This document shows positions 4,013 to 31,227 of a stretch of 31,227 nucleotides of DNA, piece by piece. The notes under the pieces were generated by a model, which ran no database searches, was not told the DNA's origin, and saw only the letters and a list, made by a program, of their open reading frames with translations. The position numbers and the translations under genes are program-made. Numbering within the stretch: the first letter of the stretch is position 1; the number at the start of each line of letters is the position of its first letter. This stretch comes from an uncultured Acidimicrobiales bacterium (GTDB lineage Bacteria > Actinomycetota > Acidimicrobiia > Acidimicrobiales > Ilumatobacteraceae): the NCBI GenBank assembly GCA_964616935.1, contig CAZTVJ010000570.1, forward strand, positions 1-31,227, in the 5' to 3' direction.

Positions 4013-4687
4013 TCAGAACAGCGTGGGCTGCTCCGGGCGGTAGACGCGCATGCCGGGCCAGGGGACGTAGTGATCCATGAACACCCACGTGCGGCGGTGG
4101 ATGGCGCTGGGGCCGTAGCCCTGCAGCGCTGCCTTGTGGACCGGGCAGGGGTAGCCCTTGTTGGTATCGAACGACCACTGCGGGTAGCTCTCGGCTTCGG
4201 CCCGCATGATGCGGTCGCGCGTGACCTTGGCCAGGATCGACGCCGCCGCCACCGACAGGCAGAGCGCGTCCGCCTTCACCAGGCGGTGGATGTGGGGAAC
4301 CGCGTCGCCGACGAAGTCCCACGACCCGTCCACCACCGCGGCGTCGACGGCCAGCCCTAGCCCTTCGATGGCGCGGCGTGCAGCCAGGCGCTGAGCCGCG
4401 GCCATGCCGAGCTCGTCGCACTCGACCTGGCTGGCGCCGCCGACCGCCCACGCCGAGCACCACGAGGCCACCCGATCGAAGAGCTGCTCGCGCTGGGCCT
4501 CGGTCAGCATCTTGGAGTCCCGGACCTTGTTCACTCTCCGGTCGCGGGGCAAGACAGCGGCCCCGACCATGAGCGGGCCCGCCCACGCCCCCCGGCCGAC
4601 CTCGTCGATGCCCACCACCACCTCGTGGCCGGCCTCCCACAGGCCCCGCTCGGTGCTGCGGCTGGGAGGTCTGGTCCGGATGGCCAC
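4013..4687 (-). CDS. rnhB: Ribonuclease HII
   Basis: GIDEVGRGAWAGP, VRDSK, VDG, SVAAASILAKVTRD, NKGY, HRRTW. GTG 4687 chosen because TAGGTT lies 8 nt upstream (leaderless pattern); the ORF-track extension to 4888 overlaps selD. Confidence 0.92.
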   Translation of the reverse strand: MAIRTRPPSRSTERGLWEAGHEVVVGIDEVGRGAWAGPLMVGAAVLPRDRRVNKVRDSKMLTEAQREQLFDRVASWCSAWAVGGASQVECDELGMAAAQRLAARRAIEGLGLAVDAAVVDGSWDFVGDAVPHIHRLVKADALCLSVAAASILAKVTRDRIMRAEAESYPQWSFDTNKGYPCPVHKAALQGYGPSAIHRRTWVFMDHYVPWPGMRVYRPEQPTLF

Positions 4688-4723
4688 GCCTGGCGAACCT
4701 AGCCCCGCCACCCGCCTCTCGGT

Positions 4724-4741
4724 ACAGATCTCGCGATCTGT
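4724..4741. promoter_or_regulatory. Palindrome ACAGATC-N4-GATCTGT between selD stop and the putative rnhB promoter
   Basis: Perfect 7-bp inverted repeat, AT-rich for this sequence. Could be an operator or a weak hairpin; function not determined. Confidence 0.3.
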
Positions 4742-4755
4742 CGTCGCGCTACGCC

Positions 4756-5823
4756 TCAGCGCAGCTCGACCGCGGCGGCACCGGCTTCGACCGAGCCGAC
4801 GACGTGGAACCCCGCTGCCACCAGCGGCTCGACGGTCGACGGATCGACCGAGGCGAGCAGGCCCCCGGAGGTCTGCGGATCGAAGCACAGCGTCTCAAGC
4901 GCGCCGGGAGCGGTGCTGCGCACGTGACCGTGCAGGTACTCGCGATTGCGGGCATCGCCGCCGGTGCGAGTGCCTGCCTCGGCGGCGTCGAGCGCGCCGG
5001 CGTAGAGCGGCAGCGCGGCGGTCTCGATGACGATGACCGCGTCCGAGCGCTCGGCCATCTCCCAGCCGTGGCCGCACACACCGAAGCCCGTGACGTCGGT
5101 GACGGCATGGACTCCTTCACCGGCCGCGATCAGTGCCTCCGCGGCGGCACGGTTGAGCGTGCGCATCCAGGCGATGGCGGCCTGCTTCTGCTCGTCGGTG
5201 CCGGCCGCCAGGACGATCCCCGTTCCGACGGGCTTGGACAGCACCAGGGCGTCGCCGGGACGGGCTCCGGCCTTGGTGAAGATGCGGTCCGGGTGGACCA
5301 GCCCCTGCACGGCCAGGCCGAAGATCGGCTCCTCGCTGCGGATCGTGTGACCGCCGACCACCATGCCCCCGGCCTCGCGCACGACCTCGGCCGCCGCCGA
5401 CAGGATGCGACCGATGGCGGCGACGGGCAGCCGCTCGGGGAAGGCGGAGATGTTCAGCGCCATGACGACGCGGCCCCCCATGGCGAACACGTCGCTGCAG
5501 GCGTTGGCCGCGGCGATGGCGCCGAAGTCGCCGGGGTCGTCGACGAGCGGCGGGAAGAAGTCGGTGGTGGACACGATGGCAAGGTCGTCGCTGACCCGGT
5601 ACACGGCGGCATCGTCGAACGGGGCCAAGCCCACGAGCAGCGCGGGATCGGCGTCGGCCACCAGGTCGCGCACCAGCTGCGCGAGCGGCGCGGCTCCCCA
5701 CTTGGCGGCGCATCCACCGCACGCTGTCCACTCGGTGAGCCGCAGGTCGGCCAGCTCGTCGGCGCCGGGCTCGGCCCCACCGGCCACCTCGGCCCCGACG
5801 GCGGGATTGGCCACCTCGGTCAT
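4756..5823 (-). CDS. selD: Selenide, water dikinase (selenophosphate synthetase), Cys-type
   Basis: LTEWTACGGCAAK (both Cys are TGC), DDAAVY, TTDFFPP, AANACSDVFAMGG, GGHTI, TDVTGFG, DPQTSGGLL. ATG 5823 preceded by TAGGCT + 7 nt. Confidence 0.93.
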   Translation of the reverse strand: MTEVANPAVGAEVAGGAEPGADELADLRLTEWTACGGCAAKWGAAPLAQLVRDLVADADPALLVGLAPFDDAAVYRVSDDLAIVSTTDFFPPLVDDPGDFGAIAAANACSDVFAMGGRVVMALNISAFPERLPVAAIGRILSAAAEVVREAGGMVVGGHTIRSEEPIFGLAVQGLVHPDRIFTKAGARPGDALVLSKPVGTGIVLAAGTDEQKQAAIAWMRTLNRAAAEALIAAGEGVHAVTDVTGFGVCGHGWEMAERSDAVIVIETAALPLYAGALDAAEAGTRTGGDARNREYLHGHVRSTAPGALETLCFDPQTSGGLLASVDPSTVEPLVAAGFHVVGSVEAGAAAVELR

Positions 5824-5830
5824 GGAGAGA

Positions 5831-5836
5831 AGCCTA
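5831..5836 (-). promoter_or_regulatory. Putative -10 box (TAGGCT) of leaderless selD
   Basis: TANNNT located 7 nt upstream of the ATG; no SD. Confidence 0.55.
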
Positions 5837-5941
5837 CGGGGCCGCGCCGCAGTCACCGCCCGCGACGAACTCCGGCCCCACGACGCGGCTTTCCGCATCG
5901 ACAGGCCGGACTTCGACCGAAGGACCGCGGCGCGGCCCGTA
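5835..5941. repeat. 107-bp nested imperfect foldback (inverted repeat) between divergent selD and deaminase genes
   Basis: Outer arms 5835-5854 / 5923-5941 (1 bulge, 1 mismatch), middle arms 5866-5877 / 5904-5915 (1 mismatch), inner arms 5881-5888 / 5893-5900 (1 mismatch, loop CTTT). TA at both ends. Confidence 0.8.
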
Positions 5942-5945
5942 AGGT
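5940..5945 (+). promoter_or_regulatory. Putative -10 box (TAAGGT) of leaderless amidohydrolase gene
   Basis: TANNNT located 6 nt upstream of ATG 5952; no SD. Confidence 0.55.
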
Positions 5946-5951
5946 CGGCCG

Positions 5952-7316
5952 ATGGCGGACCTCGTGGTGACCGGTGCCCAGCTCGTCGCGACGATGGACG
6001 ACGGCCGCCGTGAGCTGCCGGGTGGCTGGGTGGCGATCACCGGAGGTCTGGTGGACGCTGTCGGCGCCTCGACCGATCCGCTCCCGACCGCTGATCGGGT
6101 GCTCGACGCCCGTGGCTGCCTCGTCACGCCCGGCCTGATCAACACCCACCACCACATCTACCAGAACCTCACGCGCGCCCACGGTCCAGCCACGAAGGCG
6201 ACGTTGTTCCAGTGGCTCACCACCCTGTACCCGCTGTGGAGCCGGCTGGACGAGGAGGCGGCCTACGTGTCGGCGTGGGTGGGTCTGGCCGAGCTGGCTC
6301 TGGGCGGCTGCACCACCACCACCGATCACCTCTACGTGCACCCACGCGGTGGGGGCGACCTGATCACCGCCGAGATCACGGCGGCGCGGGAGCTGGGCAT
6401 GCGCTTCCACCCGACCCGCGGATCGATGAGCTTGTCGCAGAAGGATGGCGGCCTGCCGCCGGACTCAGTGGTCCAGGACGACGACGAGATCCTGGCCGAC
6501 TCGGAGCGCCTCGTCGCGCGCCACCATGACCCCTCCCACGGGGCCATGGTGCGCGTCGCGCTGGCCCCGTGCTCACCGTTCTCCGTCACCCCGGAGCTGA
6601 TGGTGCGCACCGCCGAGCTGGCCGAGCGGCTCGACGTGCGCCTCCACACCCACCTGGCCGAGGACCCCGACGAGGACACGTTCGCCGGGCAGACCTTCGG
6701 GCGGCGCACCGTCGAGCAGTTCGAGGAGGTCGGCTGGTGCACCGACCGCACGTGGGTAGCGCACTGCATCTACCCGAACGACGCCGAGATCGGCCGCCTC
6801 GGGGCGGCGGGCGTCGGCGTGGCCCACTGCCCCAGCTCGAACATGATGATCGGTGGCGGCGGCATCGCACCCGTCCCCGAGCTGCGGGCGGCGGGAGTGC
6901 CCGTGGGCCTCGGCTGCGACGGCTCGGCCTCCACGGACTCGGCCTCGCTCTGGATGGAGGCCCGCAACGCCATGCTCCTCGGCCGGCTTCGCCGCGGACC
7001 CGAATCGACCGGCGCCCGTGACGCCCTCGAGATCGCGACACGGGGAGGCGCGGGCTGCCTCGGCCGCACGGGTGAGCTCGGGCAGCTGTCTGTGGGTGCC
7101 GTGGGCGATCTCGTGTGCTGGCCGCTGGAGGGCGTCGCCTTCGCCGGTGCTCTCACCGACCCCGTCGAGGCCTGGCTGCGCTGCGGGCCCGTCGCCGCCC
7201 GCCACACCGTCGTGGCCGGGCAGCCGGTCGTGCGTGATGGACACCTCGTCGGTGACCGGGTCGAGGAGATGCTGCGCTCCCACCGTCGCATCAGCCACCG
7301 CATCCAGGCGGGCTGA
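5952..7316 (+). CDS. Amidohydrolase, 8-oxoguanine deaminase / AtzB-like family
   Basis: PGLINTHHHIYQNLTRA (HxH), TTTTDHLY, PCSPFSV, HTHLAE, AHC, CPSSNM, LGCDGSAS, ATRGGA. Exact substrate not determined. Confidence 0.88.
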   Translation: MADLVVTGAQLVATMDDGRRELPGGWVAITGGLVDAVGASTDPLPTADRVLDARGCLVTPGLINTHHHIYQNLTRAHGPATKATLFQWLTTLYPLWSRLDEEAAYVSAWVGLAELALGGCTTTTDHLYVHPRGGGDLITAEITAARELGMRFHPTRGSMSLSQKDGGLPPDSVVQDDDEILADSERLVARHHDPSHGAMVRVALAPCSPFSVTPELMVRTAELAERLDVRLHTHLAEDPDEDTFAGQTFGRRTVEQFEEVGWCTDRTWVAHCIYPNDAEIGRLGAAGVGVAHCPSSNMMIGGGGIAPVPELRAAGVPVGLGCDGSASTDSASLWMEARNAMLLGRLRRGPESTGARDALEIATRGGAGCLGRTGELGQLSVGAVGDLVCWPLEGVAFAGALTDPVEAWLRCGPVAARHTVVAGQPVVRDGHLVGDRVEEMLRSHRRISHRIQAG

Positions 7317-25870: not shown

Positions 25871-26811
25871 GATCGCCCGCCTCCCGCCATCGCGGTCAGC
25901 CACGCCACCACATCGGCTCGCACCTCCGGCGGTGCGAGCACCTCGGCGCGGTCGACCAGGCCGAGCACCCAAGACCGGAACGCCGGCAGGTTCGTGCACG
26001 GCACCGCCAGCACCACGCTGCCGTCGTCGCGCCGTTCCACCACGGCGTCCGCACCCACCTCACGCACCAACGAACCGGCCCGCGAAGCGTCGACCAGCAC
26101 GTGCGCCAACGCCGGCTCACCGCCGCCCAGCTGCTTCGGGTCCTCCGGCACTGCCGTGGCGGCGTCGAACCCCTCGGCCACGACGAACGCGCCGCTCGGT
26201 CCTGCTTCGATCTGGCCCTCGATGCGATCGACCCGGAACGTCTTCTGCTGACCCGACTCGTGCTCGAGGCCGATCACGTACCAGAAGCCGTCCCGAGCGA
26301 GAAGTCCGTAAGGGTCGACCGTGCGACCACGACCTCGATAGCCGAACTGCACGGTCGCGCGGCGACCGTTCGCGTCGAACAGCAGCGGCAGCGCCGGCAA
26401 CGAGGGCAAGGCCGCAACCTGAGGACCTACCCGGTCGCCGAGGTCGTCGTCTCCTCCCAGCTTCAGCAGCGCCAGGCCACCGACGTCACCGCCGAGGCGG
26501 ACTGCGGCGACGGCGAGCTGCAAGGCCTCGCGCTCCTCCTGGACAAGTCCTAGGTCGGGCAGCTCGTAGGTGGCCCGATCGATCCAGTACGCCGTCGCAC
26601 CCCCGCGCTCACCCTGGAGCACGTGCTGCTCGATGGGCACGCCCAGCTCTCGTAGCTCGCTCTTGTCCCGTTCGAACGCGCCTCGGCGGGCCGCGTCTCC
26701 GTCGGGGTACTGGCCCGCGAGCTCGAACGTGATCTGCTCGAAGGTGAGTGGTTCGGAGGTCTCGAGCAGCAGGGCGAGCAGGTTGACGCGACGTTCGAGC
26801 GGGTCGGTCAT
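25867..26811 (-). CDS. pafB: WYL-domain transcriptional regulator, PafB-like
   Basis: ERRVNLLALLL, RGAFERDKSELRELGVPI, VDPYGL, GFWYVIG, TFRVDRI. Confidence 0.88.
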   Translation of the reverse strand: MTDPLERRVNLLALLLETSEPLTFEQITFELAGQYPDGDAARRGAFERDKSELRELGVPIEQHVLQGERGGATAYWIDRATYELPDLGLVQEEREALQLAVAAVRLGGDVGGLALLKLGGDDDLGDRVGPQVAALPSLPALPLLFDANGRRATVQFGYRGRGRTVDPYGLLARDGFWYVIGLEHESGQQKTFRVDRIEGQIEAGPSGAFVVAEGFDAATAVPEDPKQLGGGEPALAHVLVDASRAGSLVREVGADAVVERRDDGSVVLAVPCTNLPAFRSWVLGLVDRAEVLAPPEVRADVVAWLTAMAGGGRS

Positions 26812-26823
26812 GATGACCTCACG

Positions 26824-27228
26824 CTAGGCGTGGGACGCCCGTGATTCCTCGATCACCCGCTGCATCGTGGCCACGACCTGGTCCGAGGTGGCGCCCGGGG
26901 TCAGGACGGCAGCGACGCCCACCTCGAGCAGCCGGGCCTCGTCCTGTTCGGGGATGATGCCACCGACCACGACGGGGATGTCGATGCCCCGCAACCGGAC
27001 CTGCTCGACGACGCGGGGAGCGAGCGTCATGTGGGCGCCGGACAGCATGGAGAGGCCGATGGCGTCGACATCCTCGTCGACTGCCGCCGCCGCCACCTTC
27101 TCCGGCGTCTGGAACAGCCCGGTGTAGATCACCTCGTACCCTGCGTCGCGCAGTATGCGCGCCACCACCTTGACCCCGCGGTCGTGTCCGTCGAGCCCGA
27201 CCTTCGCGACGAGGATCCGGTCACTCAT
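26824..27228 (-). CDS. Stand-alone cobalamin-binding subunit of an acyl-CoA mutase (IcmB/HcmB/MCM small subunit-like)
   Basis: AKVGLDGHDRG (DxHxxG), YEVIYTGLFQTPE, IGLSMLSGAH, VVVGGII. Confidence 0.9.
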   Translation of the reverse strand: MSDRILVAKVGLDGHDRGVKVVARILRDAGYEVIYTGLFQTPEKVAAAAVDEDVDAIGLSMLSGAHMTLAPRVVEQVRLRGIDIPVVVGGIIPEQDEARLLEVGVAAVLTPGATSDQVVATMQRVIEESRASHA

Positions 27229-27238
27229 GCCTGCATCC

Positions 27239-28105
27239 CTACTTGGCGTGGTAGTCGTAGAAGCCGCGCCCCGCCTTGCGGCCGAGCAGGCCGGCCTCCA
27301 CCATGCGCGAGAGCAGGGGCGGCGCAGCGTAGAGCGGCTCCTTGAACTCGGTGTAGAGCGAATCGGCGACTGCCATGGTGGTGTCGAGACCGATGAGGTC
27401 CGCGAGCCGCAGCGGGCCCATGGGATGGTTGCAGCCCTCCACCATGCCCGTGTCGATGTCGTCGGGCGAGGCGAAGCCCGACTCCAGCATGCGGATGGCC
27501 GACAGGATGTAGGGGATCAGCAGCGCATTGACGATGAACCCGGCGCGGTCCTGGCTTCGGATCACCCGCTTGTGCAAGGTGTCGGCGGCGAAGGCATCGG
27601 CCCGCGCTGTCGTGTCCGGACCGGTCAGCAGGGAGGTGACCAGCTCGACGAGGCGCAGCACCGGGACCGGGTTGAAGAAGTGGATGCCGATGACCTGCTC
27701 AGGGCGCTGCGTGGCCATGCCGAGCTTCATGATCGGGATGGAGCTGGTGTTGGAAGCCAGGATGGCGTCGCTGGCCACCACGACCTTGTCGAGGGCCGTG
27801 AACACCTCGGTCTTCAGCCCTTCGTCCTCGACCACCGCCTCGACCACGAGCTGGCGGTCGGCGAGGTCACCCAGGTCGGTGGTGTAGCGCAGGCGCGCCA
27901 CGGCGGCGTCCCGCTCCTCCTCGGCCAGCTTGCCGGCCCGGACTCCACGGTCGAGCGAGCCGGTCAGCCGGGCCATGCCGGCCTCTACGGCGGCGATGTC
28001 CACCTCACGCACGATCACGTCGAGACCGGCCCGGGCGCACACCTCGGCGATGCCCGACCCCATGAGCCCGCATCCGACCACGCCCACCCGCTCGATGGTC
28101 GTCAT
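27239..28105 (-). CDS. 3-hydroxybutyryl-CoA dehydrogenase (FadB2/Hbd-like)
   Basis: GVVGCGLMGSGIA, EAVVE, ASNTSSIPI, GIHFFNPVP, GFIVNALL, HPMGPLRLADLIGLD, GRKAGRGFY. Confidence 0.93.
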   Translation of the reverse strand: MTTIERVGVVGCGLMGSGIAEVCARAGLDVIVREVDIAAVEAGMARLTGSLDRGVRAGKLAEEERDAAVARLRYTTDLGDLADRQLVVEAVVEDEGLKTEVFTALDKVVVASDAILASNTSSIPIMKLGMATQRPEQVIGIHFFNPVPVLRLVELVTSLLTGPDTTARADAFAADTLHKRVIRSQDRAGFIVNALLIPYILSAIRMLESGFASPDDIDTGMVEGCNHPMGPLRLADLIGLDTTMAVADSLYTEFKEPLYAAPPLLSRMVEAGLLGRKAGRGFYDYHAK

Positions 28106-28139
28106 GCGTCCACGCTCCTCCCTGATTCAGCCGCGCCGA

Positions 28140-28187
28140 GCGAAGCGCCAGCGACGAGGCGCACGCGGCGCGAAGCGCAGCGGACGA
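28140..28187. repeat. Imperfect direct repeat GCGAAGCGC(C)AGCG(G)ACGA, two copies 30 nt apart
   Basis: 28140-28157 and 28170-28187, in the P450-hbd intergenic gap. Confidence 0.5.
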
Positions 28188-28199
28188 CGAACCCGCCAG

Positions 28200-29450
28200 T
28201 CAGCACGTGAATTCGATCTCCAGGCGCTTCAGGCCCCGCAGCACGAAGCTGGGGTGGTACTCGAGCGTGTTCCCGTCGGCCAGGCGAAGATCGCCGAGGC
28301 GGGTACCGAGGCGTTCGAAGGCCACCTGCATCTCCAAGCGCGAAAGCGGCGCACCGATGCAGAAGTGGATGCCCTTGCCGAAGGCCAGGTGCTCCTTGAG
28401 GTTGCTCCGCCCCGGGTCGAACGAGTCGGGCTCGGGAAACACCGACGGGTCCCGGTTCGCCGCCGAGTACATCACGATCAGGCGAGCACCCTTCGGCAGC
28501 GCAACCCCCTCGATCTCGGTGTCGCGGGTGACCATGCGGAACATGCCCTGCGTCGGTGTCGAAAGGCGCAGCACCTCCTCGGTGACTGCGGCCGCTCGCC
28601 CCGCGGGGTCGGCCTTCAACTTGGCCCACTCCTGCGGGTCGCCGGCCAGCAGCATCATGCCCTCGGTGAGCGCCTTCGTCGTCGTCTCGTTGCCGGCGAC
28701 GAGAAGCTGCTGCACGATCGAGAGCATCTCGTTCATCTCGAGCGGCCGCTTCGTGCCCTCGTCGGTGTCGATGCGGGCCTGCCCGAGGTCGGACATCAGA
28801 TCGCCCACGGGGTTCGCCCTGCGGTCTTCGAGCTGCGCGGCGAAGTACTGCTGGAACTCGAGAATGCCGTACTGCGCCTCGATGCGGCGCTCGTCCGTGA
28901 TGACGGCCCCGATCGACGCGATGGAGTCGTCGGACCAGCGCTTGAAGTCCGCCATCTTCTCGGTGGGGACGTTCAGCACGTGGGCGATGGCCTCGATCGG
29001 CAGCGGCACGCCGAAGCGCTCGACGAACTCGATGTGGCCCTCGTCGATCCATCCGTCGATCAACCGGTCGACGATGATCTCGATCGGCTCGCGCAGGGCC
29101 GCGATGGGGCGCGGCGTGAAGTACGGGGCAACCGTGCCGCGATAGCGGGTGTGCCACGGCGGGTCGATGGTGAGCATCGTGCCGACCGGTGGCCAGCCCT
29201 GGCGGATGATCTCCTTCAGCTTGTCGACGACGGGGCCCTTCGGCATCTCACCGGTCACGAAGTTGTTCGAGAACGTGGCGGTGTCCCGCAGGATCGGCAC
29301 CACCAGGTCGTGGCGGGTGACGAGATAGATGTCGGTGCCCGGCACATGGAACACCGGCACCTCGTCGCGCATGGCCGCGTAGTACTGGTGTGGGCACTGC
29401 TGCACCTCGGCGTCGAAGGGGTTGAAGCCCTCCAGGGTGATCTCCGACAT
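28200..29450 (-). CDS. Cytochrome P450
   Basis: MLTIDPPWHTRYR, I-helix LLVAGNETT, ExxR (EVLR), AANRDP, heme motif FGKGIHFCIG. Confidence 0.96.
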   Translation of the reverse strand: MSEITLEGFNPFDAEVQQCPHQYYAAMRDEVPVFHVPGTDIYLVTRHDLVVPILRDTATFSNNFVTGEMPKGPVVDKLKEIIRQGWPPVGTMLTIDPPWHTRYRGTVAPYFTPRPIAALREPIEIIVDRLIDGWIDEGHIEFVERFGVPLPIEAIAHVLNVPTEKMADFKRWSDDSIASIGAVITDERRIEAQYGILEFQQYFAAQLEDRRANPVGDLMSDLGQARIDTDEGTKRPLEMNEMLSIVQQLLVAGNETTTKALTEGMMLLAGDPQEWAKLKADPAGRAAAVTEEVLRLSTPTQGMFRMVTRDTEIEGVALPKGARLIVMYSAANRDPSVFPEPDSFDPGRSNLKEHLAFGKGIHFCIGAPLSRLEMQVAFERLGTRLGDLRLADGNTLEYHPSFVLRGLKRLEIEFTC

Positions 29451-30265
29451 CAGGGCGTCTCCACGAGCTCGAGGTAGGCGTGATGGAAGTGCACGTAGCT
29501 CACGTCGCCGGTGTCCGGGAAGGCCTCCGGCGCCATCGCCTTCACCTTGGCCTTGTCCGGTGCGCCGAGGCGGAAGTGCGAGTACCCGACCTGGGCGAAC
29601 ACGTCGTCGGTCCAGCGGGGCTCGATGCGGCCACCGGTCTTGGGCGTGAGCAGCCCGATGGTGACCGGCGGATCCTGGCGGACGAGCAGGACTGCGTCAC
29701 CGAGGCCGTGGAAGTCGACCCCGCGCTCGGCCACCTGCAGGCCGAAGTGCTCGTCGTAGTCCTTCTCGATCACGTCCGCTTCGCCAGGATCGGTCCAGAT
29801 GAAGATGGCGTGGTTGTCGACGGGGTCGTCGCTCGACGGCACCAGCTCGTACACCTGGTGGTCGGGACCCCGGAACAGCACAGCGATGCCGTCGTCGTGC
29901 AGCAGCTCCACCAAGCCTTCGGCCTCCCATGCCCCCCACACCGCGCGGGGGTCGGGGTGCGGGAGGCGGAAGACGGTGTCGGCCACCCGGGGTGCCCCCG
30001 GGTCTGGTGCGAAGGTGGACGTGTACGACGTGAACGTGTCCTTCTCGACGTAGTCGACGTCGCTGCGCTCACCGCGGCGGTAGATGTACTGGCGGCCCAC
30101 ACCGGGGTACATGTTCGTGATCAGGAGCTCCATGCCGAACAGCTGGAGGAAGCGGTCCGTCCGCGCGAGCGACCCGGTGAACGGCACGTCGATCTGGACG
30201 GCGCCGTCGGGCGGCACGTCCTCGGGAAGGGTGGTGCCGAAGTGGGCGATGCTGGGCGTGGCCAT
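29450..30265 (-). CDS. Uncharacterised protein, probable two-domain VOC (glyoxalase/dioxygenase) fold
   Basis: VOC-like segments FRGPDHQVYELV, NHAIFIWTD...YDEHFGLQV, GYSHFRLGAPD, YVHFHHAYLELVE. Stop overlaps the P450 start (TGATG). Confidence 0.7.
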   Translation of the reverse strand: MATPSIAHFGTTLPEDVPPDGAVQIDVPFTGSLARTDRFLQLFGMELLITNMYPGVGRQYIYRRGERSDVDYVEKDTFTSYTSTFAPDPGAPRVADTVFRLPHPDPRAVWGAWEAEGLVELLHDDGIAVLFRGPDHQVYELVPSSDDPVDNHAIFIWTDPGEADVIEKDYDEHFGLQVAERGVDFHGLGDAVLLVRQDPPVTIGLLTPKTGGRIEPRWTDDVFAQVGYSHFRLGAPDKAKVKAMAPEAFPDTGDVSYVHFHHAYLELVETP

Positions 30266-30286
30266 GAGCTGGTTCCCCCTCGTGGG

Positions 30287-31099
30287 TCAGACGCCGGCTT
30301 CGGCGAGGAGCATACGGGTGCTGTCAGCGAGGCGGCGAGCCACATCCGACGCGGGCAGGAGGTCGAGATCGTCGTCGATCACCTCGACCGAGAGCGGTAC
30401 GGCGGCGGGCAGCTTCTGGAGGAAGGTGATGAGGTCGAACTCGCCGTCGCCCGGCACCTCGCGGTAGTGCAGGCAGTCGTTCAGGTAGTCCGGATCGACC
30501 GGGACCATCGGCCCGTCGTCGAACTGGACGACCACCACCCGCTCGGGCGGGATGTCGTCGAGCTGGCCGATGCCGGTACCCCGGAACACATGCCACGAGT
30601 CGACGCAGAGCCCGCCGTTGTCCGGGTTCCCGGCCGCCGCGATGATGGCGAGGGCGTCCGGTGCGTCCTTCACTGCGGTGAACGGAAGGAACTCCCAGGC
30701 GAGCCGGGCGCCGAAGGGAGCAGCCCGCTCGCACAGCGTGGCGAACCGCTCGCCGGCGGCTTCGACCGGCACCTCACCCTCGAACGGTGCGATCACCTGG
30801 ACGTGGGTCGGCCGGAAGGCTTCGACCATCTCGAACACGTCATCGACTCGGTCGTCGCCGAAGATGCGGAGCGCCTCCACCTCCAGCAGGCGGATGCCGT
30901 GGTCGTCGAGGACGCGTTGCATGGCGTCGATCGACCAGCCGTCGCGCACCATCGCTCGGAACCAGCCGACGTTCAGCCCGATCCCGTCGAAGCCCGCTTG
31001 GGCGGCCGCCGCCACGCGCTCGTCGAACCCGGCGTTGCGGAGGCTGAAGTGGCTGAGGATCAAGGTCCGCCTGTGATCTGACGCGACATCATCGGTCAT
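30287..31099 (-). CDS. Sugar phosphate isomerase/epimerase family (xylose isomerase-like / AP-endonuclease-2 TIM barrel)
   Basis: ERVAAAAQAGFDGIGL, LAWEFLPF, LCVDSWH, VQFDDG, PGDGEFD, SVEV metal-binding pattern. GAGGTG SD. Confidence 0.85.
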   Translation of the reverse strand: MTDDVASDHRRTLILSHFSLRNAGFDERVAAAAQAGFDGIGLNVGWFRAMVRDGWSIDAMQRVLDDHGIRLLEVEALRIFGDDRVDDVFEMVEAFRPTHVQVIAPFEGEVPVEAAGERFATLCERAAPFGARLAWEFLPFTAVKDAPDALAIIAAAGNPDNGGLCVDSWHVFRGTGIGQLDDIPPERVVVVQFDDGPMVPVDPDYLNDCLHYREVPGDGEFDLITFLQKLPAAVPLSVEVIDDDLDLLPASDVARRLADSTRMLLAEAGV

Positions 31100-31106
31100 G
31101 TGGAGG

Positions 31107-31226
31107 TCACCTCGCCTCAGATGGCTCGGGAGCGCGTCCCGGGGTGCGGCCGATCATGTCGAACTCGCGGTCGACGCCCTCGGCGCCACTGACCTTGATG
31201 CACCGGAAGCTGAACCGCCACCCGAC
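31107..31226 (-). CDS. 3' end of an upstream gene, possibly NTF2/SnoaL-like (truncated by window edge)
   Basis: Frame VGWRFSFRCIKVSGAEGVDREFDMIGRTPGRAPEPSEAR*. GWRF resembles the C-terminal strand of SnoaL-like proteins; only 39 aa visible. Confidence 0.4.
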   Translation of the reverse strand, partial: VGWRFSFRCIKVSGAEGVDREFDMIGRTPGRAPEPSEAR

Positions 31227-31227
31227 G

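Follow-up and report, generated by a model that had tools for sequence, protein, structure and literature searches.

An unannotated four-module VOC-fold protein family with a candidate metal site, encoded in overlap with a cytochrome P450 gene in an uncultured member of the Acidimicrobiia

The stretch of DNA analyzed here (the window) is an entire contig of 31,227 bp, C570, from a 3.37-Mb metagenome-assembled genome (MAG) of the Acidimicrobiia, and its subject is an orphan protein of 271 amino acids, VOC1, which is predicted to adopt the fold of the superfamily named vicinal oxygen chelate (VOC) in four modules. The VOC1 gene lies on the minus strand (30265-29450, stop codon 29450-29452) and is followed on the same strand by the gene for a 416-aa cytochrome P450 of the class I bacterial type (29450-28200; PF00067 at 2e-29). 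As the first-pass annotation of this DNA had reported, the two genes are translationally coupled: read directly from the sequence, a minus-strand TGATG (29448-29452) contains both the VOC1 TGA (29452-29450) and the P450 ATG (29450), which have one base in common (...CCCTGATGTCG...). GGAG is found 9-12 nt 5′ of the P450 ATG and GAGGGGG 9 nt 5′ of the VOC1 ATG. Overlaps of stop and start codons are frequent in operons and, taken alone, are unremarkable. Upstream of VOC1, at a distance of 21 bp and on the same strand, is the gene for a 270-aa xylose-isomerase-like TIM barrel (AP_endonuc_2; 31099-30287; PF01261 at 7.6e-15). VOC1 represents a new family within the known VOC superfamily, of the fold class shared by glyoxalase I (GlxI) and the ring-cleaving dioxygenase PcpA, and four strongly conserved residues of its first and last modules probably constitute a metal center.

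Comparison with its relatives indicates that VOC1 is a real gene. Its 167 homologues, of 256-340 aa and 45-63% identity, are all annotated as "hypothetical protein" and all come from MAGs; they conserve the N-terminus MATPSIAHFGTT, which fixes the VOC1 start codon. Searches of VOC1 against Pfam and NCBIfam returned no match even at E = 1, and sequence profiles of PF00903 and the related clan models likewise do not recognize it as a VOC protein. Neither the single sequence nor a 53-sequence profile matched any PDB sequence, and a profile hidden Markov model run over 1.84 billion cluster representatives gave 30 matches, all of them from VOC1's own family and none forming a bridge to annotated VOC families. 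The family is small and isolated in sequence space. Among species-representative genomes, 39 VOC1 loci were found, all in MAGs and with no cultured isolate among the carriers, distributed over the Acidimicrobiales, Chloroflexota/Dehalococcoidia, Deltaproteobacteria, one Spirochaetales bin, Alphaproteobacteria, and many Pseudomonadales (OM182, Azotimanducaceae). Within the window's own family and order, four of 61 genomes carry it. The P450 complement of all 39 VOC1 genomes is unusually large, at 7 to at least 36 PF00067 matches in genomes of 2.2-6.3 Mb (first-look candidates number as many as 65), and in the 61 relatives a count of at least 25 first-look P450 candidates was reached by all four carriers, compared with 13 of the 57 non-carriers.

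The earlier suggestion that VOC1 is a two-domain VOC protein is confirmed at the level of a predicted structure. An AlphaFold2 model built from the 53-sequence alignment (predicted local distance difference test score, pLDDT, 97.3; predicted template-modelling score, pTM, 0.93) consists of four beta-alpha-beta-beta-beta modules, spanning residues 8-80, 97-143, 153-208, and 230-269 (modules 1 to 4), and in a Foldseek search of the PDB all 45 matches at E <= 1e-3 were VOC proteins. The top match was the monomeric GlxI of Zea mays (E 1e-8), with a query-normalized TM-score (TMq) of 0.60-0.63, and Bacillus subtilis 3oaj and PcpA (4huz) each gave a TMq of 0.57. Lower values were obtained with BphC (0.34-0.39) and with HPPD/HMS (0.28-0.35), at root-mean-square deviations of 9-20 Å. 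The members of this superfamily build their active sites as cups from pairs of modules. In extradiol dioxygenases and HPPD, the cups are formed from consecutive modules (1+2 and 3+4), the second of which houses the catalytic triad, whereas cups of the glyoxalase I type are formed from non-consecutive modules, and fused monomers pair modules 1+4 and 2+3. Escherichia coli GlxI, FosX, and GloA2 are domain-swapped dimers. Single chains of E. coli GlxI (1f9z), FosX, and GloA2 superpose on two consecutive VOC1 modules with target-normalized TM-scores (TMt) of 0.64-0.68, which implies that consecutive modules of VOC1 share no cup. A catalytic C-terminal domain composed of consecutive modules 3 and 4, as in the extradiol and HPPD enzymes, is thus not what the model displays; the predicted arrangement is that of GlxI and PcpA. 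The iron ligands of PcpA, His11, His227, and Glu276, come from modules 1 and 4 (PMC3204407).

Residue conservation, counted over 146 non-identical family members, is independent of the model and agrees with this arrangement. The codons of interest are all read from the minus strand. His8 (30242-30244), the first residue of beta1 in module 1, is present in 145 of the 146 sequences; Glu74 (30044-30046), on beta4 of module 1, is found in all 146; His230 (29576-29578), the first residue of beta1 in module 4 within SHFRLG, is present in 145; and Glu266 (29468-29470), on beta4 of module 4 within YLELV, is present in 145, with one Asp. According to the alignment and the model, these are the four canonical ligand positions of glyoxalase I, on beta1 and beta4 of modules 1 and 4, and together they are the probable metal center of VOC1, with Glu74 as a putative fourth ligand or catalytic base. 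Three of them have positional matches among the PcpA ligands (His8 with His11, His230 with His227, and Glu266 with Glu276). Asn151, Arg100, Arg196, and Arg232 are each present in all 146 sequences, Arg232 lying two residues past His230. Altogether there are about 37 invariant positions, among them five arginines (R64, R93, R100, R196, and R232) that suggest an anionic substrate. The corresponding ligand positions of the cup formed by modules 2 and 3 (V98, E140, H152, and T202) are degenerate, although invariant R100, E140, N151, and R196 are retained there.

The first-pass annotation had located its candidate site elsewhere, in an extradiol- or HPPD-like triad of His152, His230, and Glu266 assisted by Tyr257. 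Translation places all four residues at these positions, and the broader notion of a divergent metalloenzyme survives in the form of an unannotated VOC fold with a conserved His/Glu site, but the residues assigned to that site do not hold up as a set. His152 (codon 29810-29812), at the start of beta1 in module 3, is conserved in only 122 of the 146 sequences (Phe in 14, Arg in 5, Asn in 4), and position 257 is Phe in 83 and Tyr in 62. In an arrangement of the GlxI/PcpA type, moreover, His152 is expected in one cup, and His230 and Glu266 in the other.

Two further analyses bear on how the modules are related. Mean-field direct-coupling analysis of the 146 sequences (effective number, Neff, 91) placed the top couplings between modules 1 and 2 and between modules 3 and 4 (R38-E116, K75-D135, Y170-F231) and linked modules 1 and 4 only by the weak couplings S5-G234 and A7-A245. 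The top couplings involve outward-facing residues beside inward-facing ligands, and fit a back-to-back packing of two cups; the invariant residues within the cups cannot covary. When the N-terminal and C-terminal halves of VOC1 were aligned with hhalign as a possible internal repeat, the alignment was collinear and in the expected register (R64 with R196, FRL 99-101 with FRL 231-233), at a non-significant E of 0.026.

The most conserved neighbor of VOC1, about as frequent as a P450, is a second orphan family without a Pfam domain, VOC2, of about 272 aa and with the motifs QTHHGI, HTHYVEN, ANHFRL, and ETIExFD. Examples are encoded at related loci L020 (9125-9946, minus strand), L045 (9070-9918, minus), and L073 (2316-3104, minus), and in the window's own genome at C288 (4545-4888, plus, at the contig end) and C378 (about 4112-4849, plus). 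VOC2 is encoded somewhere in 24 of the 39 VOC1 genomes. An AlphaFold2 model of VOC2 (pLDDT 78) also has four VOC modules and belongs to the class of GlxI, PcpA, and GLOD4: its best Foldseek matches were 1zsw, maize GlxI, GLOD4, and PcpA at TMq 0.52-0.59, against 0.26-0.31 for extradiol enzymes. VOC2 retains the His/Glu/His/Glu pattern of VOC1 in modules 1 and 4, with its invariant Glu69 aligned to Glu74 of VOC1. Profile-profile alignment of the two families with hhalign is collinear with matching His/Glu/His/Glu positions, at a probability of only 15%, and suggests that VOC1 and VOC2 may be paralogues. In relative G005, the genes for a short-chain dehydrogenase/reductase (SDR), VOC2, and VOC1 follow one another on one strand, VOC2 and VOC1 in tandem; a 589-aa open frame in this genome that might have been taken for a TIM-VOC fusion was rejected as an artefact of open reading frame (ORF) extension over the tandem genes.

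Neighborhoods were compared by clustering all ORFs within 10 kb on either side of the 39 non-redundant VOC1 loci. VOC2, divergently transcribed directly upstream of VOC1, is found at 19 loci, a P450 at 18, an SDR (often in two copies) at 17, an acyl-CoA dehydrogenase at 16, a histidine phosphatase overlapping the 3′ end of VOC1 at 10, and an enoyl-CoA hydratase at eight. P450 genes are enriched in the flanks, at 17 of 39 loci compared with 4.4-5.8 expected from the P450 count of each genome, and within 3 kb of VOC1, at nine loci compared with 2.1-2.7 expected, figures that are uncorrected for shared synteny and whose significance is thereby inflated. Within 10 kb of VOC1, about half of the related loci lack a P450, and among the loci compared the overlap of VOC1 stop and P450 start is found only on this contig. 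The link between VOC1 and P450 is accordingly facultative: real and frequent, but not fixed. In a Pseudomonadales subgroup (L003/L045, L033, and L036-L039), VOC1 overlaps a downstream histidine phosphatase (His_Phos_1) gene and lies among genes for a monomeric isocitrate dehydrogenase, a PabB/PabC-like fusion, and an APH/EcKL-type kinase, a context that looks housekeeping rather than catabolic.

The P450 encoded in the window is intact. It matches PF00067 and has the FxxGxHxCxG heme-thiolate loop (FGKGIHFCIG, 357-366, with heme ligand Cys364), the AGxxTT motif of the I-helix (AGNETT, 252-257), and ExxR (EVLR, 292-295), and its closest solved structures are 6gmf, a reconstructed CYP125 ancestor, EryF, and CYP142. 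In a P450 tree its sister is an unlinked paralogue encoded on contig C116 of the same genome (46% identity). The VOC1-linked P450s are spread over at least five clades; six of proteobacterial origin form one supported clade and share 35-37% identity with the window P450. On these grounds the window P450 was rejected as an orthologous partner of VOC1. The proposal in the first-pass annotation that VOC1 acts on the product of the P450 retains the presumed co-expression of the two genes here and the enrichment of P450s across the family, but a dedicated partnership is weakened by the many loci that have no P450, by the polyphyly and unlinked nearest relative just described, and by an overlap unique to this contig. 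Measured against the refuting conditions named in the first-pass annotation, conservation fails at His152 and Tyr257, and the P450 linkage holds in about half of the cases. As observations on the host itself, its 3.4 Mb encode about 22-27 P450s, and PF00903 has 24 matches there. A P450 gene on contig C494 (5533-6816, minus) is accompanied by a PF00903 match (5159-5494, minus), one on C21 (6220-7287, minus) by a PF00903 match on the plus strand (5734-6141), and two on C52 by a gene, at a distance of 3 kb, for a PF00903 protein with two domains. P450-VOC pairing thus recurs in this organism, ordinary VOC-domain genes being found beside at least three more of its P450 genes.

The remaining genes of the locus may extend the operon in both directions. 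The TIM barrel is most similar in the PDB to 2g0w (Lmo2234, function unassigned; 1e-21), with the QuiC1 entry 5hmq at 1.2e-8, and matches NCBIfam model NF042435 at 1.4e-13. Its adjacency to VOC1 is confined to this contig and one Acidimicrobiales MAG locus (L001/L009). A further gene is truncated where the contig ends and contributes its 3′-terminal 39 codons (31226-31107, minus), which stop 7 bp before the start of the TIM-barrel gene on the same strand; this indicates that the operon continues past the contig end. Downstream of the P450, after a gap of 94 bp and in the same orientation, lie genes for a 3-hydroxyacyl-CoA dehydrogenase (28105-27239; PF02737 and PF00725) and the small, B12-binding subunit of a mutase (27228-26824), the latter an orphan. 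A scan of positions 26700-31227, including the gap behind the P450, found no promoter- or terminator-like sites, and these two genes may belong to one transcript with VOC1 and the P450. A motif scan of the 31,227-bp window found no small ferredoxin, in agreement with the first-pass annotation.

The explanation favored here, to which a probability of about 0.6 is assigned, is that VOC1 belongs to an unannotated four-module VOC family with a metal cup formed by modules 1 and 4, a chemistry based on proton transfer, and a facultative link to P450s. Modules 1 and 4 would form one cup and modules 2 and 3 the other, following the pattern of monomeric GlxI, PcpA, and GLOD4, and the working cup would be that of modules 1 and 4, where His8, Glu74, His230, and Glu266, with Arg232 adjacent, would create a site of the glyoxalase I type. 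VOC1 would bind a divalent metal there, and the metal may chelate two neighboring oxygens of an oxygenated intermediate that is anionic and probably bears a carboxylate. A proton-transfer reaction (isomerization, epimerization, or lyase-type cleavage) would then follow, rather than O2-dependent ring cleavage. The family invariants of LinE, a PcpA homologue, are H12, H13, H51, Y53, H228, H229, Y268, and E278 and include no Glu at the beta4 position of module 1, so that the four-ligand pattern of VOC1 is closer to GlxI than to the enzymes that cleave rings and favors a glyoxalase-I-like Lewis-acid reaction over Fe(II)-dependent ring cleavage. In the window, where the genes for the TIM barrel, VOC1, and the P450 form an operon in this order, VOC1 and the P450 probably act in a common catabolic route. 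In the family as a whole, the P450 link would reflect a shared location in catabolic islands of uncultured bacteria that are rich in genes for P450s, SDRs, and acyl-CoA dehydrogenases. Several points count against this explanation. Neither PF00903 nor the LinE profile detects VOC1, so that comparisons of the model with characterized enzymes are structural only. The meeting of His8, Glu74, His230, and Glu266 at one point is deduced from fold class and topology, and the couplings between modules 1 and 2 and between modules 3 and 4, taken alone, would also fit an extradiol-like pairing of consecutive modules. The chemistries of GlxI and PcpA both occur in this fold class, and with Glu74 acting as a base a dioxygenase is conceivable. 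Finally, the neighborhoods of VOC1 are heterogeneous, some Pseudomonadales loci being housekeeping-like, and no substrate can be deduced from them.

An Fe(II)-dependent ring-cleaving dioxygenase of the PcpA/LinE/MhqO kind, in which His8, His230, and Glu266 form the iron triad in the same cup and Glu74 is a second-sphere base, is considered unlikely, though a serious candidate. Such an enzyme would cleave a ring of the hydroquinone or catechol type supplied by the P450 and perhaps aromatized by a TIM-barrel dehydratase, and the adjoining P450 gene, the distant relationship of the TIM barrel to the dehydroshikimate dehydratase domain of QuiC1, a maker of aromatic diols (5hmq at 1.2e-8 and NF042435 at 1.4e-13), the near coincidence of its triad with the PcpA ligands, and the TMq of 0.57 to both 4huz and 3oaj (annotated as a putative dioxygenase) are all in keeping with it. 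VOC1 does possess GlxI-like modules with a His in module 1 and a His and a Glu in module 4, a correspondence that is positional only; the signature of these enzymes (LHHIT, HLYF, VHHxAF, and a Tyr 10 residues before the Glu) is absent from it. When a family alignment of 117 LinE/PcpA homologues, based on LinE from plasmid pCHQ1, was compared with the VOC1 and VOC2 profiles in hhalign, the probability was below 1%, and LinE H13, H51, Y53, H229, and Y268 had no counterparts in either profile. The equivalent of PcpA Tyr266 is unconserved (Y257 being Phe in 57%), the invariant Glu74 stands where LinE/PcpA has His51/Tyr53 and would leave fewer open sites for substrate and O2, and many VOC1 loci have no aromatic-pathway genes.

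The type I extradiol or HPPD-like enzyme of the first-pass annotation, with Fe(II) held by His152, His230, and Glu266 of modules 3 and 4 and Tyr257 assisting, is highly improbable. Its residues do mimic BphC H146, H210, and E260 in position, His152 does occupy, in module 3, the canonical ligand position on beta1, and the top covariation does join modules 3 and 4 and modules 1 and 2; against these stand the loss of His152 from 23 of 146 sequences, to Phe, Arg, or Asn, the replacement of Tyr257 by Phe, the low TM-scores of VOC1 with BphC and HPPD/HMS relative to about 0.6 for the GlxI/PcpA type (VOC2 behaving alike), and the invariance of His8 and Glu74 in module 1, which this assignment leaves unexplained. 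It is also very unlikely that VOC1 is a true thiol-dependent glyoxalase I acting on methylglyoxal or another 2-oxoaldehyde, or a non-catalytic VOC protein of the sequestering, bleomycin-resistance type, with the P450 adjacent by chance. The top Foldseek match to maize glyoxalase I, the His/Glu/His/Glu pattern, and the housekeeping neighbors at some loci would be expected of such a protein, but no PF00903 or other glyoxalase profile matches VOC1 even at E = 1, its restriction to P450-rich genomes and to four of 61 close relatives is unlike a housekeeping detoxifier, and the five invariant arginines among about 37 invariant positions favor a specific anionic substrate and catalysis.

A single scaffold that supports very different metal chemistries is classically exemplified by the VOC superfamily, and its new families have repeatedly turned out to catalyze new reactions; P450-rich uncultured bacteria, for their part, are regarded as degraders of recalcitrant organic matter. 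A more ambitious proposal, which must be regarded as speculative and improbable, is that VOC1 and VOC2 together form a new two-protein metalloenzyme module of P450-rich catabolic generalists (uncultured marine or aquatic Acidimicrobiia, Chloroflexota/Dehalococcoidia, Gammaproteobacteria of the OM182 and HTCC2089 types, and Alphaproteobacteria), carrying out an undescribed ring opening or isomerization of alicyclic or aromatic compounds rich in carboxylates once P450 and SDR have oxidized them, by a chemistry unlike that of characterized VOC enzymes. The finding that VOC1 represents a new family opens no long-standing question and shows no new principle. Its value is more practical: both families escape Pfam, NCBIfam, and PDB sequence searches and every record is labeled "hypothetical"; His8, Glu74, His230, and Glu266, with the recurrent partners VOC2, P450, and SDR, provide defined targets for mutagenesis and co-expression; and the corrected candidate site guards against modelling VOC1 as an extradiol dioxygenase.

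Several known systems invite comparison. The extradiol enzymes BphC and catechol 2,3-dioxygenase, and HPPD/HMS, share with VOC1 the superfamily, the four modules, and the placement of His and Glu on beta1 and beta4, but differ in building their cups from consecutive modules and in catalytic His and Tyr residues that are absent or unconserved in VOC1. QuiC1, the 3-dehydroshikimate dehydratase of Pseudomonas putida (5hmq), is a fusion of a TIM barrel to a VOC domain and recalls the window, where genes for a TIM barrel and for a VOC protein also lie together, though unfused; the VOC part of QuiC1 is HPPD-like and thus of the other module arrangement, and no TIM-VOC1 fusion was found among the loci, the two genes being merely adjacent in two Acidimicrobiia contigs. 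B. cereus 1zsw, human GLOD4 (3zi1, 9csj), and CppA of Streptococcus pneumoniae (3e0r) belong to the fold class of VOC1 and VOC2 and have no sequence similarity to them; they are top structural matches of VOC2 (TMq 0.51-0.59), and 3e0r matches VOC1 as well, but they have no assigned chemistry and hence add no functional information.

PcpA, LinE, and MhqO (4huz, 3oaj) are of the same fold class as VOC1, and PcpA His11, His227, and Glu276 fall nearly at H8, H230, and E266. VOC1 differs from them in missing the LHHIT-type (LinHHIT), HLYF, and VHH motifs and Tyr268, and in possessing the additional invariant Glu74 and the five invariant arginines. The LinE gene was located by motif at L078 (7235-8200, minus strand) on pCHQ1 (NC_014007.1, about 114235-115200) and its identity was confirmed, an earlier candidate on that plasmid, TraF, having been rejected. 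A PF00903 search of the whole pCHQ1 record missed LinE, and most LinE-family clusters have no precomputed Pfam domain; the Pfam glyoxalase model covers the characterized four-module VOC dioxygenases poorly.

The known system most like VOC1 in arrangement is the monomeric GlxI of Zea mays (GLX1; 5d7z, 6bnx), and equally its rice, yeast, and Plasmodium counterparts, in which four modules are likewise joined in a single chain. Both proteins, VOC1 according to its model, have two lateral cups, one complete and one degenerate, with His/Glu/His/Glu on beta1 and beta4; they share 14-15% identity and no profile-detectable similarity. In glyoxalase I, His/Glu/His/Glu (or Gln) makes up an octahedral metal site, and the four invariant residues of VOC1 occupy the topologically matching positions. 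In contrast to GlxI, VOC1 is restricted and accessory in its distribution, and nothing points to thiol-adduct substrates. The active cup of the maize enzyme, to go by general knowledge and the mutant names E144Q and V278E, is probably that of modules 2 and 3, so that the complete cup probably lies in modules 2 and 3 in maize and in modules 1 and 4 in VOC1. The degenerate site between modules 2 and 3 of VOC1 is, in turn, similar to the cryptic site of the plant enzymes.

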